Origin: Methanotrichaceae archaeon
Lineage (GTDB): Archaea; Halobacteriota; Methanosarcinia; Methanotrichales; Methanotrichaceae
Assembly: GCA_963748825.1 (NCBI GenBank)
Contig: CAVVKN010000018.1
Location: 64,001 to 128,000 of the forward strand
Direction of reading: 5' to 3'
DNA: 64,000 nucleotides
A program made the translations under genes and the position numbers. Within the stretch, counting starts at the first letter, position 1. Each line of letters starts with the position of its first letter. Under the pieces are notes generated by a model. It was not told the DNA's origin. It did no database searches and saw only the letters and a program-made list of their open reading frames with translations. Of the stretch, positions 31,045 to 38,733 are shown one piece after another.

Positions 31045-31239
31045 ATGAAAACGAAAACCCGTGCGGTATTCGAAGATGGTATTTTAAGACCCTTAGAACG
31101 ACTTAATTTGAAACAGGGCGAAGTGGTAGAAATAGAGATCTCCAATGCAGTTCGTAGATCTAAAGGCATCATAAAGATCGATGCAAAGCTGGGAAGAGAA
31201 ATAGCAGAAAGCGATGAGTTTTCCTGCCTGGAAAGTTAG
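31045..31239 (+). CDS. vapB: DUF104/AF2212-like antitoxin
   Basis: RAVFEDGILRPLERLNLKQGEVVEIEI; directly upstream of a PIN gene. Confidence 0.85.
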   Translation: MKTKTRAVFEDGILRPLERLNLKQGEVVEIEISNAVRRSKGIIKIDAKLGREIAESDEFSCLES

Positions 31240-31731
31240 ATGCTAGATACTATCCTTCCCGGAAGCAAAATCTTTATTGATTCAAATATAATGATCTATC
31301 ATTTTCTTGATCTTTCAGAGAGCTGTTCAATTCTCCTCGAACGAGTCGAGCACGGTGAGGTTCAAGCTTATATTTCCACAGTTGTGCAGGCTGAGGTCTT
31401 GCATAGATTGATGATATCAGAAGCGGTGGATAAATTCGGGATCAAACCCAACCAGGCGGTAAGATATCTGAAGGAGCATCCTCGTGCCATTGCATCCTTG
31501 GATAAGTGCGAGATTGCCTTAGCAGATATCCTTGAGTTCAATATCGAGGTCATATGCATGGGAAGAGAAGCAATAATCAAGAGCCAGAATTTTAGAGAAT
31601 GCTACGGTTTAATGACCAATGACTCCTTGAACTTTTATGCGATGAAGAAAGAAGGGCTCAGAATAATTGCCACCAATGACAGAGATTTCGAGCGTATTGA
31701 TGGGATCGAGGTCTGGAGACCAAATGTTTGA
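31240..31731 (+). CDS. vapC: VapC PIN-domain toxin
   Basis: IFIDSNI, VQAEV, LMTNDS, IATNDRDF. Confidence 0.9.
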   Translation: MLDTILPGSKIFIDSNIMIYHFLDLSESCSILLERVEHGEVQAYISTVVQAEVLHRLMISEAVDKFGIKPNQAVRYLKEHPRAIASLDKCEIALADILEFNIEVICMGREAIIKSQNFRECYGLMTNDSLNFYAMKKEGLRIIATNDRDFERIDGIEVWRPNV

Positions 31732-31770
31732 AATGCAGCTACTGGCGTACTTTAATGTCTCGGAGCTACC

Positions 31771-31977
31771 TCAATCTCCTCTCCACTCCTGGATCTTGTG
31801 TTGCAGTTCCACCGATGTGTACCGATCCTTTATGTCTTCCAAAGCTCCTCTCCAATCCAGCTTCAAGCGGCCTTTTGGCTTTCTGCCTCGTTTCTCCATC
31901 AGGAACTTTGCGAAATCGGCAACCTCTTGATGGAGATCAGGAGGAAGCTCTTTGATTACTTCTTCCGGCTCTGACAT
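31771..31977 (-). CDS. DUF2281 family antitoxin-like protein
   Basis: LPPDLHQEVADFAKFL, LKLDWRGAL, YTSVELQHK. Confidence 0.85.
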   Translation of the reverse strand: MSEPEEVIKELPPDLHQEVADFAKFLMEKRGRKPKGRLKLDWRGALEDIKDRYTSVELQHKIQEWRGD

Positions 31978-32259: not shown

Positions 32260-35200
32260 ATGCCGCAAGATGCCCCCTCCCCCCAGGGCTTTCGAGTTCT
32301 GGTAATAGTCTCCCGGCCGCTGGACCTGCTGGACCTGCCCAACTTAGCTGACCAGTGGGCCTTGCAGGGCGGCCTGAGACGGGTCCAGGCCCTGGCCTAC
32401 CTGAAGATGCTCCGCCCGCCCACGGTGGAGAGCCTACGCAGCGAGATTTTGAACGGCTACGACATCGTCCACTTCGATGGTCACGGGGACTTCGGACTGC
32501 GCTGCCCTAACTGCGGCGGGCTCCAGTTCGCCACAGCAGAAAGAGTGCGAGCCGCTGCGACGCTCTTCTTGAGGACGAGATGGCGAAGGGCTACTTCGCC
32601 TTCGAGCGAGAGGACGGCAAACTGGACGCTCTTGGCGGCGGAGGAGCTGGCGAAGATCGTCATGAGCGCGCCGGGCAAAGCAACGAAGTTGGTCTTCCTG
32701 AGCGCCTGCGAGTCGGCCAAAGGAGGCGAGGCCAGTCTCTTAAACGCTCTGCTGTCGTAGCGGCGTTCCTGCCGTCCTGGGGATGAATGAGTCCGTTCCA
32801 TTAAAGGCGACCATGGCTCTGACCACGCCCTTTTACGCTGGCCTGGGAGCGGGCATGACCATCGCCCAGGCCTTCCAGAATGCCCTGCCTGCATTTGAAG
32901 AGGTTGGAGAACGGCAGCAAACTGCAGAAGATCCCGGTGCTGGAAGGGCCGGGAAAGGATGTCAAGATTCTGCCGACAAAAGTCAGCGGGAGGGCAAGCT
33001 TTGAGGCGGAGCGGCTCTTCGGCCTTCCCGAGCACGAGTTCGTGGGCGACTACATCCGGGCGATCCGCCGCGCGGGCGCAAGGGGCTTCTCTCTCAGGCC
33101 ATGGATGCTCTTCAGTCCGGAGAAAAGCTGGTCGTCCTCACCGGGCAGGGAGGCATCGGCAAGACAGTGCTGGCCTCGGAAGCGGCCCGGCGGCTGGCCT
33201 GGCGCTATCCGGGCGGCGTCTTCTGGCGGAGCGCTGCCGAACTGGAGACGACTGGGCCTGGAGGAGATGCTTAATGCCTTTGATAATGTCTTTGGACTAG
33301 AGTTCCGGACGCTTCCCCTCGATGCAAAGCGCGACCAGGTTTTGGGCTATCTCAGGAATTACGATACAGCCAGCTTGCTGGTGGTGGATAACGCCGAGAG
33401 CATCCAGGATCAAAATCTTTGGCGCTTCCTGGAGGGCATCCCCCAGCCCAGCGCCGCTCTGGTGACCACGCGGGAGAGCCTGCCGTGCGGGGGCCGGGAG
33501 ATCCGAGTGCCCGAGATGGAGACAGAGGAGGCAGGCAGGCTGCTCATCAGCAGAAGCGCGCCGGCGCTCGCCCAGGTGGGGAGAGCACTTGAGCCCGGCT
33601 GATCTGCAGAGCCTGAATGAGATCGCAGGCTTCATGCAGGGTCATCCACTGGCCATCAAGCTGATTGCGGCGCTCATGACTAGCAGAAGCCTGGCCAGCA
33701 TCAGAGACGAGCTGAGAAGAAATCCACCTAGAGAAGTATCGGATCGTTTTGATGTCTCTTACAGAAGTTTGACAGAAGGGCAGAGAGATCTCTTCTGCCG
33801 CCTGGCGGTCTTCTCTGGCTCCATGACGGAAGAAGCCATGGGAGCATTTGCATTGAGGAAGATCAAAAAGGCAATTGGAACTGGCAGAGCGATCTGGGCG
33901 AACTGGAACGCAGATCCTTCCTGGACAGAATTGAGATAGAGGCTCATGATGATTCGGGCAATGAGGTCACGCTCTATCGCTACCGCCTGCATCCGCTCAT
34001 GCGCCAGTATGCTGCCGGAAAAGCTGGAGAAGAGCTTCTGGCCAGATTTAGATCGAAGGCTGCTGATTATTTTATGGGATATGCTCAACATTTTAATAAT
34101 AGCTACGATATGCTTGAGATGGAAAAGGGAAATATTCTTTCTTGCATGGAATGGGCTAATCGATGAGATTCGCATGATCCAGATCGGAATTCATAAACTG
34201 GGAAATTGTCTCAAAGAATTGGCAATTATGCGAGAAGCTCGCAAGCTTTACGAACATGCAATAGGCTGTGGAGGACTTGCTCCGCATAAGGAGTTGGGAC
34301 AACGGCATCGAGTAGCTAGGCAGCTCAGGATAGATCAGTACCTTCAGTAACCTATCCTTTCGCTTTCTCGTCGATGCTATTGTTTCATCCAGCATCACAT
34401 AACCTGTTTTGGCTGTGGGCGAGAAGATGAAATCAAAGAGCCACTCAAGATATACCCCAAAACCACAATCAGGATTCTCTTTAAAATCCGCCAGCAGTTC
34501 ATAATAGTGCCATAGCCGATCGATAAAACCACTCAGCAGAGTTCTATGTTGTTCAAGAACGGGTGTTAGTTTCCTATAATGCCGTATCTCATGTATCCAG
34601 CATAACCCCTGCTTTGAAGATATGGAATGGAATTGCTGGGCAGCATCCGAAACCATTGGCTTGTCTATTTGCTCGCCTTCTTTCAATCCGAAAATGGGTC
34701 TCAAATCATCTTTGCTTTTTCCGCCTAGAATGAAGAACGAGCCGAACTGATCATTGCACACCACGTCCAGATAATGATTTTTCCCTGCGTGCCTGGCACC
34801 AGTGTCATCTATCTGAAAGTAATCTGCGTTCTCCATACCGGTTTTGAATATCGCATTTTTTTCGGCGGTAAATTCTTCGCGCTTCTCTTCGATCATGATG
34901 TTTGAGATCGTGCCTTCAGAGATGATGGTGCCGATGCTCTCCAAGATCTTCTGGATTTTGTTCTCGGTTACTCTTCCCAGGTTATGGAGGGTGATCGCGA
35001 ATGCTTTCAGGCGGCTTCCAAAACTGGTCCCTTGCAGATCCTTTGGAAGTTTCGCTTCGAAGGTCTTTTTTAAGGAAGGCGAATAGAATCGCTCAAGAAG
35101 GCACTCCATGTTGCATGTTTTAAATGCAATGTCTTGAATAACTACGCTGCGAAAACCCTTTGGAATCGCATCATCTGGAAGAATGCTCCTATCGACGCAG

Positions 35201-36318
35201 AACTTCTGAATGCGATCTATCTTGACTCTGGTTATTTTGGCTTCTTTTTTCCAGGGTTTGGATTTACCTACTTGATGATTGGGTTTGTCACGAGGAATAT
35301 CAGGAACGTTTGGCAGTATCTTTGGTTTGTCTAGATGCTTTAGATCAGAGGTCGGCATTCAAAATATTGAGCATGTTCAGCTTTACCAGCAAAGTATGAA
35401 AATTAGTCGGGAATTATGGGATGTGAGAGGAGAATCTGGCTCGCTTCATAATTTAGGCGTTCTTGCCTATGTTTGCGGTGATTACGCCGAGGCCCGAAAT
35501 CACCTTTACCAGAGCTTGGAAATTGATCAAGAATTGGATGATAAAAGGGGGGTGGCTAATTCTTTAAATCATTTGGGTTTAGTGGCTCAAGCAATCGGCG
35601 ACTATAACGAGGCCTGCAAGCTCTATCAGCAGAGCCTAAAAATAAAGTTGGATATAGGAGAAAAGAGAGGTGCATCCAGTTCGCTTATCAACTTGGGCAA
35701 TCTGGCCCAGGCAACTGGCAACTATGAAGGGGCCCGGAAGTTCTATCAGCAGAGTGTGGAAATTGATCAAGAATTAGGTGATAGGAGCGGAGAAGCTAGA
35801 TCGTTGCTCAACTTGGGCACTCTAGCCCAGGCAACTGGAAATTATGACAAGGCCCGGGACCTCTACCAGCAGAGCTTGAAAATTGATCAAGAAATGGGTA
35901 ACAAAAGAAGCGTGGCCAAATTGCTGAACAACTTAGGGACCTTGGCTCAGATCACTTGCAACTATGATTATGCTAGCATACTCTATCAAGAGAGCTTGAA
36001 AGTTGATCAGGAAATAGGTGATAAAAGAGGTGTGGCTAGTTCTCTTCACAACTTGGGCGCAATATCCCAGGTCACCGGCGACTATGCCGAGGCCCAAAAG
36101 CTCTACCAGCAGAGCATGAAAATTATGCAGGAACTAGGCGACAAGAGCGGCATTGCTCTCACCCAGGCACAACTAGCATCTCTGGAAGAGAAAATGGGGA
36201 ATAAGAAAGTCGGCTTTGCAGCTCATTCTTCAGGCTGAGGCGAGCTTTTCTGGAACTGGGTAGCCCCTACGCAAAACTGGCCGGAGAGGTCAGGCAAAGA
36301 CTGGATCAAAATCAATGA
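32260..36318 (+). pseudogene. CHAT caspase-like protease + NB-ARC/STAND ATPase + TPR array; several frameshifts and an IS insertion
   Basis: HFDGHG and LSACES catalytic motifs; GQGGIGKT Walker A, LLVVDNAE Walker B, LVTTRE, GHPLAI; about seven 40-aa TPRs (SLxNLG..AQATGNY..AR.LYQQSL.I.QELGD). Confidence 0.85.
34252..35378 (-). mobile_element. IS66-like insertion sequence with internally deleted transposase
   Basis: Terminal inverted repeats GAACATGC...GCATGTTC; 8-bp direct repeat AGCTTTAC at 34244-34251 and 35379-35386; transposase motifs IDDTGARH, VSDA, LCWIHEIRHY. Confidence 0.85.
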
Positions 36319-36333
36319 GATAGGAGAACGATC

Positions 36334-36549
36334 ATGCTCAAGATACAATGCTTCAATGAGAAATGCACTGCACCAGGCCGAATATTTCAGTGGAATGAGC
36401 GTCCACACTTAGAGGCAGACGGTAGGCTGGCCAAAGAAGGAGACGAAGGAGCGGTATCGTTTGTTGAGCTATGCCCATCCTGTGGCACCAGGAACAAGAT
36501 TCCGGGTGACAAAGGTGCAAGAGAACGACGTAAGAAGGAAATGATTTAG
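36334..36549 (+). CDS. Small zinc-ribbon protein
   Basis: CFNEKC...CPSCG; GGAG RBS; starts 15 bp after the TPR gene stop. Confidence 0.7.
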   Translation: MLKIQCFNEKCTAPGRIFQWNERPHLEADGRLAKEGDEGAVSFVELCPSCGTRNKIPGDKGARERRKKEMI

Positions 36550-36567
36550 ATTGGGGAGGACACAGAT

Positions 36568-37048
36568 ATGCCAGACAATGCAGACGCACCGGACGCCATC
36601 GGCGAGCCCGTCACCGAGCTGGACGAGTTCTGGCTGGAGACGGCCAGGACCGCAGTCCGTGAGTCCATCGCCTCTCTGGAGGAGGCGGCCAAGCAGCTCA
36701 TCGGGGCTGTGACCCTGGTGGAGGGCATCTATTTTGCTGCCATATCCTTCAGCGACCTGCGAAAAGTCATGGCTGTGCAGGGCATGGAGGCGTGATTTTC
36801 GCATCCTGCTCTTCGTGAGCCCCATCGTCCTGTGGCTCGTCTGCCTCTTCTTTGCGGTGCGGGTCTTCACACCCGAGACCTACAAGACAAACCTCAACTC
36901 GCCCCAGCTTGCCGAGAAGTTCTACCGGGAGATGGTCGGCTACAAGCACCGCAATTTGAAGAGGGCCTACTGGGCGCTGCTGGCCGGGTTTGTGCCGCTG
37001 GTATTCGCCGTGGTGTTCTACCTCAAGCTCCTGGACGGGCCGGGCTGA
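36568..37048 (+). CDS. Three-TM membrane protein with Pycsar-effector-like topology; frameshift near 36790
   Basis: SIASLEEAAKQLIGAVTLVEGIYFAAISF / LWLVCLFFAVRVFTP / YKHRNLKRAYWALLAGFVPLVFAVVFY; GGAGG RBS. Confidence 0.65.
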
Positions 37049-37389
37049 AGGCTTTGCTCTGGTACCACTCGTTGTTTCGAGCGGGATCCCGAATGGGAAT
37101 TGGCCAGAATTTTAAAAGGCAAATGGACTTCGTCCTGATCGATTTTTGCACATAGAAATTCCACCAGAGTCGCGGCAAAGTGGCCCAGGATCATCCTCTT
37201 TCAGGCTCCCGTGCTTGCGGGCAGGGCGGGCGCGTCGGGGCTTACGGGCTGGGCAAGCAAATCAGAGATAACAGGAATGGAGCCTGCAATAGCAGGTCTA
37301 AGGCCTGGACGTATTTGACTTCCGTAACATCAATCTAGGAAAGCCTCGCCAGAAAGGATCTGATCTATCTGATACAGAATTGGCAGAAT

Positions 37390-37470
37390 TTGCTTTTTCA
37401 AGATATCCCAGAGTATCTCTTCATCCAGGCCGAAGTACCTGTGAACAGAGATATCCCTTCCAAGCCTGGC
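37390..37470 (-). pseudogene. HepT/DUF86 HEPN RNase fragment
   Basis: RDISVHRYFGLDEEILWDIL (RxxxxH motif). Confidence 0.6.
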
Positions 37471-37650
37471 AGAGGACCATAGACAGAGTTTTGTCAGAAA
37501 TTAATGTGCAGTTGTTCAGCCATTACTGGCCGAACTCCCACCCTAGATCAATAGGCTGATCCTCCTCCCTGCTGGCGGTCTGTTTTTATTGCCTCTGCAT
37601 GCCATACCTATCTCCGATGGCCGGCTCCTCTGCCAGCGTTACTGCATAAG

Positions 37651-37800
37651 CTATCAGCTTGCGAGACAGGATTGATCGATGTTATGAAGGGCAGCGCAGA
37701 GGAGTTTGTTGGCCTTCCTGCGGGGTTTATGCTTGCGGGAGTTCCCTGTGTTGTGAGCAGCCTCTGGTCGGTACCGGATATCTCCACTGCCCTTCTGATA
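37651..37800 (+). pseudogene. Second CHAT-domain fragment
   Basis: LSACETGLIDVMKGSAEEFVGLPAGFMLAGVPCVVSSLWSVPDISTALL. Confidence 0.8.
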
Positions 37801-38733
37801 CCAGCATCCTATAGTTGAGGCCTGAAATAATTATATCTAAACACTTGCGTGTGGCCAGCCTGTCCTTGTGGGTGGGGTATATTTCGGGCCGCACGACCGG
37901 TTCTCCGGGATTCAGAAATCATCGGGTCTTCGTTGCTCAGATCTTATTCACGATCCTCTGTGCTCACGAAATAATAAACCTTCAGCAATACCTACTTTGA
38001 ATATTGAGATAATGTCAATGAACATATTATTTCAGCGAGTTGATCCATTTCGCGCAGCAAAGTGGCTAGTGAATCCCAATGACTGAGCTTGCAGGTTGAA
38101 CTTGCTGGTAAAAACATGTGGGCATCCCGTCCTCCACATGGCCATATACCGGTAATTACTTCCAAGTTGCAAGCTGCGGGGCATCAAAGGCGCCGCCGCA
38201 TGATATTCTGTATTTCACAAAATCACCTCTTTTGAAACTAATATGTTCAGTAACCTTAAGAACTTTTGCATTTAAGATACACTAATTAATTTTATATTGG
38301 AGTTAATTTTTTCTAAAAAATATAAAGATAATTAGAGCCAATTCCGTTATCAATCGGACTTTTGTCGCATTGGCATAATAATCTAGGCGGAAGAAATTTC
38401 TCTGCTAAATGTGATTAATTATCAATTTTTTTTATCTCATAAATTAGAAACCAAATTTCTTAATACTATTATTATGTGGATTGCAGATAGCTTCGCGAAT
38501 AAACTGCTAAATTATTTTGTAATTATGCCTGTATTTCCTATCGTATTAATACTGAAACCATTAGCTTTATTTTTACAGAGTTCGGTTTCATTTTTAATAC
38601 TATTATCTCTATTACAACTACGATCATTTTCTTGAATATCCATATGATATAATCCAACAATTGCTTTCGATATGTTTATATCCCTTAAAGGCAAATTCTT
38701 CGTATACTCAATAGAGTATAGGGGTGAATTAGA

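Follow-up and report, generated by a model that had tools for sequence, protein, structure and literature searches.

Death effectors gated by a protease and placed on NLR-like sensors are now regarded as a main logic of prokaryotic immunity and clearly parallel inflammasome, caspase, and gasdermin signaling. Bacterial gasdermin systems, reportedly described by Johnson et al. in 2022, are said to carry caspase-like or CHAT proteases fused to NACHT or repeat sensors. Craspase of type III-E CRISPR joins a TPR-CHAT protein (Csx29) with Csx30, and the ternary system CATRA, with CATASP, reportedly goes back to Burroughs and Aravind in 2020 and Nicastro et al. in 2023. In excerpts of a preprint by Evans et al. 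(PMC12642450), protease-linked effectors on STAND sensors, two pore formers among them, are activated when the protease cuts them at a specific site; EACC1 and Pepco, whose genes adjoin those of proteases carried by Avs and other sensors, form pores after one cut. These excerpts and those of Kaur et al. (PMC7159879) describe EACC1-caspase, Pepco-protease, MBL-protease, and alpha/beta-hydrolase-caspase modules, and the latter give EACC1 one conserved transmembrane helix with alpha+beta extensions and place its gene 5' of the caspase gene. Here we analyzed a 64,000-nucleotide stretch of DNA from a Methanotrichaceae archaeon (the window; positions 64001 to 128000 of contig C18 in a 2.88-Mb assembly of 25 contigs, 94.9% complete). 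Positions 32260 to 37048 of the window hold a CHAT-NB-ARC-TPR gene (the big gene), a gene for a 71-amino-acid (aa) protein with four cysteines (the Zn-ribbon gene), and a gene for a small membrane protein, with gaps of 15 to 18 bp between them. The relatives of the window proteins carry the names Methanothrix or Methanotrichaceae in public records.

As a set, the three genes are conserved, and their linkage is strongly supported. A pattern scan of one genome per species gave 35 loci with the membrane gene, which were searched by local tblastn with pieces of the window (the big open reading frame [ORF] of L031 was scanned with Pfam). The complete trio, in the same order and on one strand, was present at 19 of the 35 loci, in Methanothrix or other Methanotrichaceae, two Methanocrinis, one Chloroflexota (L031), and two Acidobacteriota (L032 and L033). 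Nine loci were too short upstream: L016, L017, and L024 show a TPR tail and the Zn-ribbon gene, L013, L021, and L038 the Zn-ribbon gene only, and L011, L027, and L040 neither the Zn-ribbon gene nor a TPR tail. Another five are remnants. L034 and L035 retain only the 3' half of the membrane gene, while in L036:4264-4846, L037:1802-2156, and L039:7873-8294 the start of the CHAT gene abuts that 3' half, as if one deletion had taken out almost all of the operon. The initial annotation, made from the sequence alone, had proposed the trio as a unit whose small genes are linked to CHAT genes. The linkage was borne out, with two adequately covered loci lacking a CHAT gene, and the trio is conserved as proposed, but the Zn-ribbon gene proved not to be universal, as the distant branch described below makes clear.

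Within Methanotrichaceae, 28 of 60 other sampled genomes match the membrane gene, and only 12 of these matches are full length without a stop. Even among the 19 complete trios, the longest open frame of the big gene falls far below its span in L014, L019, and L023. Several Methanothrix genomes share one chromosomal site for the operon, with the same pair of radical-SAM genes upstream of it. In L033, nothing but the trio separates fdhD from a molybdopterin oxidoreductase gene, as would suit a mobile unit that is complete in itself.

A metagenome scan with an 8-sequence alignment of the membrane protein gave 80 further loci, which we searched with local hidden Markov models (HMMs) built from our own alignments. 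Their membrane proteins, 27-58% identical to the Methanothrix protein, make up one distant branch. A CHAT-NB-ARC gene lies beside the membrane gene at 22 of the 80 loci (18 upstream and 4 downstream), or 22 of the 25 that could be assessed; at the other three, at least 3 kb of upstream sequence holds no such gene. Ten loci could be judged downstream only and have none there, and 45 were too short. For three of these ten we tested the upstream side, and all three show a TPR array directly upstream, broken by the contig end. Among 13 big neighbors scanned with Pfam (E <= 0.001), CHAT, TPR, and AAA_16 were found in all 13 and NB-ARC in 11; the catalytic His and Cys and both Walker motifs, A and B, are invariant in these 13 metagenome proteins. 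The Zn-ribbon HMM matched none of the 80 loci. Since the distant branch keeps the pairing without the Zn-ribbon, the core consists of a protease-STAND protein and the membrane protein, and the Zn-ribbon is a clade-specific extra.

One of the three metagenome loci without a CHAT-NB-ARC gene (L094:4115-11128) has its membrane gene between a Peptidase_C11 gene (clostripain family, E 3e-44) upstream and a gene for a 1577-aa NACHT and FGE-sulfatase protein downstream; the partner is therefore a protease-STAND pair as a class and not one gene family. A gene for a Reg_prop beta-propeller is found further upstream in the same locus. What stays constant beside the membrane gene across its family is a STAND sensor joined to a clan-CD protease. 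The Zn-ribbon gene is confined to a clade with an N-terminally short CHAT domain, comprising Methanotrichaceae, some Chloroflexota, and Acidobacteriota. In this clade the CHAT profile is matched from about position 105-132 on, compared with positions 33-272 in L068, the one long form for which coordinates were shown.

The 5' part of the big gene in the window (32260 to 34251, plus strand) encodes the short CHAT domain with a CxxC...CxxC insert between its His and Cys motifs, an NB-ARC STAND nucleoside triphosphatase (NTPase), a winged-helix region, and the first TPR, and it contains at least nine one-base indels. The 3' part (35379 to 36318, plus strand) encodes the TPR array and a 24-codon C-terminal tail, with one-base differences near 36209 and 36244 that shift the tail out of frame. 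The CHAT motifs HFDGHG (His) and LSACES (Cys) are read in the frame starting at 32260, and the NB-ARC motifs GQGGIGKT, LVVDNAE, and GHPLAI in other frames, so that the pieces of the gene span all three. Pfam CHAT (PF12770, clan CD) matches 32260-32760 with an E value of 4.1e-12 (46.6 bits against a gathering cut-off of 24) and TPR_12 matches 35279-36238 with an E value of 2.8e-49, while Pfam NB-ARC (PF00931) has no match on the fragments in the window. Frames and scores together place the CHAT and NB-ARC motifs and the TPR array where the initial annotation had read them. The last 24 codons sit in a separate frame at 36244-36315 and are 83-88% identical to the C-terminal 24 residues of the L007 and L006 proteins, which puts the true end of the gene at about 36318. 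Apart from a mis-framed CHAT query piece, the pieces of the 5' part share 76-96% amino acid identity with loci L006-L012.

Intact homologues of the big gene encode proteins of about 800-1200 aa with an N-terminal short CHAT domain, NB-ARC, and a C-terminal TPR array. CHAT scores 70 bits in the L007 protein and 63.3 bits in that of L033; NB-ARC scores 24.8 bits in L007 (cut-off 23.5), 44.3 in L033, and 34 in L031. The catalytic His (H-F-x-G-H-G) and Cys (S-[AT]-C) and the Walker A and Walker B motifs are kept in all 15 intact proteins, and GHPLA in 12 of the 15, the variants being GHPLG (L025), GYPLA (L032), and GYTLA (L033). Across the Methanothrix loci, the TPR part is 26-62% identical, compared with 71-96% for two pieces of NB-ARC. 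We also observed a CxxC...CxxC insert between the catalytic His and Cys of the Methanothrix-type CHAT domain (L006-L020; for example L007:4693-5400) in 10 of 15 aligned proteins; both Acidobacteriota proteins lack it, and the alignment does not cover L022, L026, and L030 there. This insert looks like a built-in zinc ribbon, present besides the separate Zn-ribbon gene.

The Zn-ribbon gene (36334 to 36549, plus strand) starts 15 bp after its upstream neighbor, behind a GGAG-type motif, and has an open frame. It is the CxxxxC/CxxC gene with its ribosome-binding motif that had been recognized in the initial annotation. Its relatives (n = 40) are 57-78 aa long, the protein of the conserved operon being one of 70-78 aa, and an alignment of 32 sequences retains all four cysteines (C6, C11, C47, and C50) without exception. 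Beyond N-K-I, the window protein continues as PGDKGARERRKKE, where all 31 homologues read like WVTKV..., and its residues 57-69 are off register and unlike all 31 aligned homologues. Such a scrambled C terminus fits paired indels near 36500 and 36540 relative to an intact allele. A predicted complex of the Zn-ribbon and membrane proteins scored 0.30 and 0.26 against a mark of 0.32, in predictions run without controls, and points neither way. NCBIfam holds no model for either protein.

The membrane-protein gene (36568 to 37048, plus strand) follows after 18 bp and also has a GGAG-type motif before its start. A one-base insertion at about 36793 splits it into 36568-36792 and 36794-37045; the two pieces abut at residues 75/76 of 159-aa homologues such as P0002, to which each is 93% identical. 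Its relatives (n = 117) are mostly 159 aa long. The AlphaFold2 (AF2) model is all helical, with a mean predicted local distance difference test score of 74.5 and helices at residues 17-58, 61-67, 73-98, and 112-155, and hydropathy gives three stretches at 44-62 (marginal), 73-104, and 132-156. The N terminus, roughly its first 16 residues, is acidic and varies in sequence, and conservation starts at an F-W motif. The three-helix protein with an acidic N-terminal tail that was initially predicted downstream is thus present, as judged by hydropathy and the AF2 model. Pfam scans of five proteins and 73 family members found no enzymatic domain, and a Foldseek search of the model against the PDB returned nothing at E <= 0.001.

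The protein belongs to a large stand-alone family. A profile built from 18 membrane proteins matched 643 representative clusters (made at 50% identity) with E <= 0.001, of which 268 reached E <= 1e-10, and the best 150 listed of the 643 are all short, 63-266 aa and mostly about 150 aa. The family was not found in the searchable literature and has no name in Pfam, NCBIfam, or PADLOC; likewise, the trio, which the initial annotation did not recognize as a named system, corresponds to none in PADLOC or NCBIfam. No second copy of the membrane gene was found elsewhere in the 94.9% complete assembly. In some Methanothrix genomes, a second copy, partly truncated, was seen about 0.5-1.1 kb downstream of the first (L011:1588-1941, L014:9012-9463, and G330:C1:552400-553850).

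The membrane protein had been called Pycsar-like, a likeness that is plausible but no more than suggestive. PycTM and the present protein are both small helical membrane modules whose elements follow one order: a helix at the N terminus that carries a conserved acidic/Ala-Lys motif, a pair of hydrophobic helices, a loop, and a Lys-rich helix leading into the last hydrophobic helix. We built two PycTM profiles, one from 7 proteins scoring above the Pfam cut-off, which were found in 7 of 301 genomes of the phylum, and one of 20 sequences that includes their relatives. When compared by hhalign, a broad profile of the family matched the 20-sequence profile with 90% probability (E 1.6e-6) over 128 collinear columns and three helices, and the 7-sequence profile with 73.5%; a reversed PycTM template scored 22.4, against 45.0 for the real one. 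The PADLOC PycTM model (PDLC02363) matched residues 112-150 with an E value of 0.0018, and in the ESM Atlas the cluster ranked third by nearness bears the name 'Pycsar effector protein domain-containing' and has PF18967 assigned to 21% of its members. The direct searches speak against the likeness: the best score of Pfam PycTM (PF18967) on five proteins of the family was 10.7 bits (E 0.72), below the gathering cut-off of 27.2, and only 3 of 73 family members gave E <= 0.01, the best 3e-4. Since rescoring fails the cut-off, the precomputed PF18967 labels of the database are weak hits. A narrow 18-sequence family profile gave 5% against the 20-sequence PycTM profile, and among 40 templates shuffled in 20-column blocks one exceeded the real score and three reached at least 42.9, although this null is harsh because truly similar blocks are kept. 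The membrane module is probably, though not securely, a distant relative of the PycTM domain.

The partners that define a Pycsar system were not seen. There is no room for a cyclase between the window genes, the operon proteins match no cyclase model in PADLOC, and no Pycsar cyclase is among the 10 PADLOC families matched by 148 ORFs in the flanks of 23 homologous loci; the window's own flanks were scanned against Pfam only. A cyclic nucleotide monophosphate-binding domain was found on none of the five family proteins and the set of 73 members scanned. Papers mentioning PycTM describe canonical Pycsar and an operon of Pycsar with type IV Thoeris and no pairing with CHAT-STAND proteins.

We give about an even chance to the proposal that the membrane protein is a protease-licensed effector and the operon most likely a protease-triggered cell-death or antiviral system. 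The steps that we propose are drawn by analogy with the gasdermin, EACC1, and Pepco protease-effector modules. The TPR array would bind a trigger, such as a viral protein, and the NB-ARC module would oligomerize and bring the CHAT domains together. The active protease could then cut a cytoplasmic segment of the membrane protein, either the acidic N-terminal tail before the FW helix or the loop at residues 100-133; in the clade that has a Zn-ribbon, that partner may be what is cut or displaced instead. Once freed, the membrane protein would assemble and breach the membrane, and the cell would die or arrest before the virus is completed.

Besides the poor direct PycTM scores, several observations weigh against this proposal. 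In two Chloroflexota loci (L028 and L029) the Zn-ribbon and membrane genes have no CHAT gene within 7.9 kb upstream, and in L028 an IS200-type transposase lies directly upstream. The first hydrophobic helix is marginal and falls below threshold in a distant member, and no conserved residue marks a cleavage site in the N-terminal tail, where F-W alone is conserved. The 148 flanking ORFs of the 23 loci matched no PADLOC family more than three times, and several of the families are generic enzymes; the fixed place of the Methanothrix operon beside two radical-SAM genes points the same way. Viral contigs are nearly without the membrane family, with one locus (L128) found by the distant-branch alignment and none by a second alignment, which fits a host system and is uninformative on defense.

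A broader version of the same proposal, which we advance tentatively and rate somewhat short of even, is that the membrane proteins form a large, unnamed family of protease-licensed effectors that shares ancestry with PycTM and is the dedicated partner of clan-CD protease-STAND proteins in archaea and bacteria, in which the Zn-ribbon acts as a clade-specific licensing factor. If this were true, one ancient membrane-killing module would respond to two very different inputs, either cleavage by a protease or a cyclic nucleotide; an NLR-to-caspase-to-membrane death pathway would exist in methanogenic archaea; and the Zn-ribbon would be a licensing factor that goes with the N-terminally shortened CHAT domain of its clade. 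The membrane proteins are thus a further candidate family of effectors, widespread in metagenomes, and the family occurs in archaea of the Methanotrichaceae, methanogens that are important in anaerobic digesters and wetlands. The frequent decay in this family supplies alleles in nature that range from intact through broken to deleted, from which the cost of carrying such a system could be studied, and, if the PycTM link holds, membrane effector modules have been swapped between second-messenger and proteolytic signaling.

The copy in the window is itself damaged. An IS66-family insertion sequence (IS) at 34252 to 35378 on the minus strand splits the big gene, flanked by an 8-bp target duplication, AGCTTTAC, at 34244-34251 and 35379-35386 and bounded by the terminal inverted repeat GAACATGC. 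Pfam DDE_Tnp_IS66 matches a minus-strand ORF at 34156-35358 with 28.6 bits (cut-off 23.1). Copies with 99-100% identity occur in the same genome at C22:111815-113235, C6:53981-57916, and C11:42623-44822. The window element is shorter than these sister copies, which hold extra DNA between the matched parts, and where it has 15 letters (34303-34319), contigs of three sequencing runs have 195. This shortening explains why the 400-aa transposase ORF runs past the element into the host gene (34156-34251). The excision initially suggested, 34252-35386, is exact, as it comprises the whole IS and one target copy, and the TPR frame then continues in-frame across the single remaining copy.

We compared the region with contigs of four public runs. 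A 3.6-kb environmental contig (X2) covers 33296-34157 and 35379-37100 without the IS, joining 34204 to 35379, and its allele is about 94-97% identical to the window over the covered stretches. It is also free of the window indels at about 33550 and 33838 and at 36209, 36244, and 36793, and it differs at 36500 and 36540. An undamaged form of the operon therefore exists in nature. Contigs of three runs omit one base at both 36209 and 36244. None of the public sequencing runs holds half of the region's words; much of the shares of 0.20 seen in runs is probably due to the IS, whose contig depth is very high, and a contig from an RNA library (X15) covers the IS and nothing else of the region. For this reason, we make no claim on habitat or expression from the runs.

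Alignment of the window DNA with seven intact homologue DNAs placed indels of one base in the big gene, with insertions at 32526, 32551, 32632, 32757, 32893, 33248, and 33551 and deletions at 33058 and 33839. Most of these indels lie outside homopolymer runs. The frameshifted pieces reported in the initial annotation were confirmed, and further damage was found in both small genes, beyond its account. About 15 one-base indels fall within about 3.7 kb of the operon (32526-36793), and substitutions at first and second codon positions are not in excess. Neither plain decay nor plain sequencing error explains this pattern comfortably. That the indels are assembly or sequencing errors, the strain's genes being intact apart from the IS, we consider rather unlikely. 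It would agree with the excess of insertions over deletions, 7 to 2 between 32526 and 33839, and with the environmental allele that lacks five of the indels. Third codon positions hold 56-61% of the differences from intact homologues, compared with 57-64% between intact pairs, and 12 of the 13 listed differences from the intact allele within 33558-34124, the NB-ARC part, which indicates no extra amino acid change. On the other hand, neither of the adjacent radical-SAM genes (490 and 488 aa; G+C content 54-57%) is interrupted, and they share 90% identity with L007 across 3.7 kb, the majority of the indels are not homopolymeric, a second CHAT fragment with stops decays at the same locus, and related genomes decay likewise. 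The sequencing runs listed for the source sample contain almost none of the region's words, so that reads do not discriminate between errors and decay. Whatever the indels are, the IS insertion alone inactivates the big gene. As read from its DNA, the window copy is a dead, non-functional relic of a conserved operon, and its value is as a pointer to the family. Separately, of the 11 differences listed between the window and the intact allele within the TPR array (35409-36228), only 2 are at third codon positions, which could reflect diversifying change in the sensor or mis-laying within repeats.

The surroundings of the operon had been described as island-like. Between the radical-SAM genes and the operon, 31045-31977 encodes an AF2212-like (E 1e-10) and PIN (E 6e-12) pair and, on the opposite strand, a DUF2281 gene; in L007 the matching gap is about 1 kb and holds other small ORFs. 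No long ORF is present at 37050-38700. This stretch includes a second CHAT remnant at 37511-37818, 0.5 kb past the end of the operon. It corresponds to profile positions 11-74, with two TGA and one TAG codons inside, and 194-247, the piece at 37672-37818 matching with an E value of 4.3e-10. Apart from those in the window, the genome has one other CHAT gene, a 446-aa open frame on contig C21. The AF2212-like/PIN pair, the DUF2281 gene, and the second CHAT fragment are thus present as described, but the island-like character is weak, the flanks of homologous loci being poor in defense families.

This poverty of defense genes, together with the fixed position in Methanothrix, favors another explanation, in which the operon is a regulated death or differentiation device of filamentous or multicellular prokaryotes and a HetF-like CHAT protease processes the membrane protein on an internal signal or one from a neighboring cell. 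A role in death or differentiation of filamentous organisms is the main rival to a defense role. Methanothrix and Anaerolineae are filamentous, a habit that fits such a role. The CHAT domain of a metagenome homologue matches the NCBIfam HetF model with an E value of 4.8e-20, far below the model's cut-off, and caspase-centered systems are enriched in multicellular prokaryotes according to excerpts of Kaur et al. (PMC7159879), which supports it further. Against it, the operon is patchy and often decayed within one family, as the counts for Methanotrichaceae given above show, the trio has moved as a unit into Acidobacteriota and Chloroflexota, and the TPR part diverges faster than NB-ARC. Patchiness, transfer, and a fast TPR part are marks of conflict systems and speak against an essential developmental gene, which would not be lost so often. 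We therefore regard a developmental role as unlikely.

That the membrane protein is instead a sensor, anchor, or inhibitor of the CHAT-STAND protein, with the protease killing by cutting cellular targets, strikes us as distinctly improbable: the protease is constant and catalytically conserved, the membrane protein lacks an enzymatic domain, and, in the excerpts of Kaur et al. (PMC7159879), a sensor role was first proposed for the single-helix caspase partner EACC1, but the big protein already has a large, fast-changing TPR sensor, EACC1 turned out to be a cleaved pore-forming effector in the excerpts of Evans et al. (preprint, PMC12642450), and the membrane family probably shares ancestry with PycTM, called an effector in its Pfam description. 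Two readings of the broken big gene were rejected: programmed frame changes or another genetic code, as 15 homologues read through in one frame with table 11, and a TPR half brought from another gene by the IS, as the IS-free allele joins the two halves directly and the window sequence, once the IS is removed, reads in-frame across the single target copy.

Returning to the protease-licensed effector that we favor, the operon can be set beside several described systems. With Craspase it shares a CHAT domain joined to TPR repeats, and in Craspase this protease cleaves the small product of a neighboring gene; in the present operon the TPR array is C-terminal, the NB-ARC NTPase lies between the domains, and the substrate candidates are unrelated. 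The likeness to CATRA/CATASP is one of name only, that of a caspase-dependent three-gene conflict system with a small associated protein (excerpts of PMC8195603 and PMC12642450); in the excerpts of PMC8195603 the 'effector position' of CATRA holds glycosyltransferase (GT4) domains, whereas the membrane protein is constant here. Compared with Pycsar, the input here would be a protease and not a cyclic nucleotide, and no adjacent PycC was seen. Bacterial gasdermin systems are similar in that a clan-CD protease with a STAND or repeat sensor stands next to a membrane-breaching protein that is reportedly inactive until cut. The AF2 model of the present protein is all helical, however, and by hydropathy the putative effector is already a membrane protein; Pfam and PADLOC scans of the operon and family proteins found no gasdermin family.

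The modules of Evans et al. and Kaur et al., as far as their excerpted text describes them, resemble the present operon most directly in their architecture, in which a protease domain is fused to a STAND sensor and one cut sets free the partner, a membrane pore former in two known cases. Sensors with FGE-sulfatase or TPR parts are also repeatedly found among them, and L094 has its NACHT-FGE protein here. The membrane family is not among the ten module names in the Figure 1 legend of PMC12642450. Its members differ from the partners described in those excerpts in having three hydrophobic helices in an all-alpha protein of about 150-160 aa that is mostly encoded 3' of the protease. Compared by description only with the excerpted account of EACC1-caspase, the membrane gene here is 3' in all 19 complete genome loci and in 18 of 22 metagenome loci. 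Pepco is, by the same excerpts, a 117-aa beta-barrel former, unlike the all-helical protein found here. Finally, one clade of the operon adds a Zn-ribbon protein to the protease and membrane-protein pair, which sets it apart from the known protease-effector modules.

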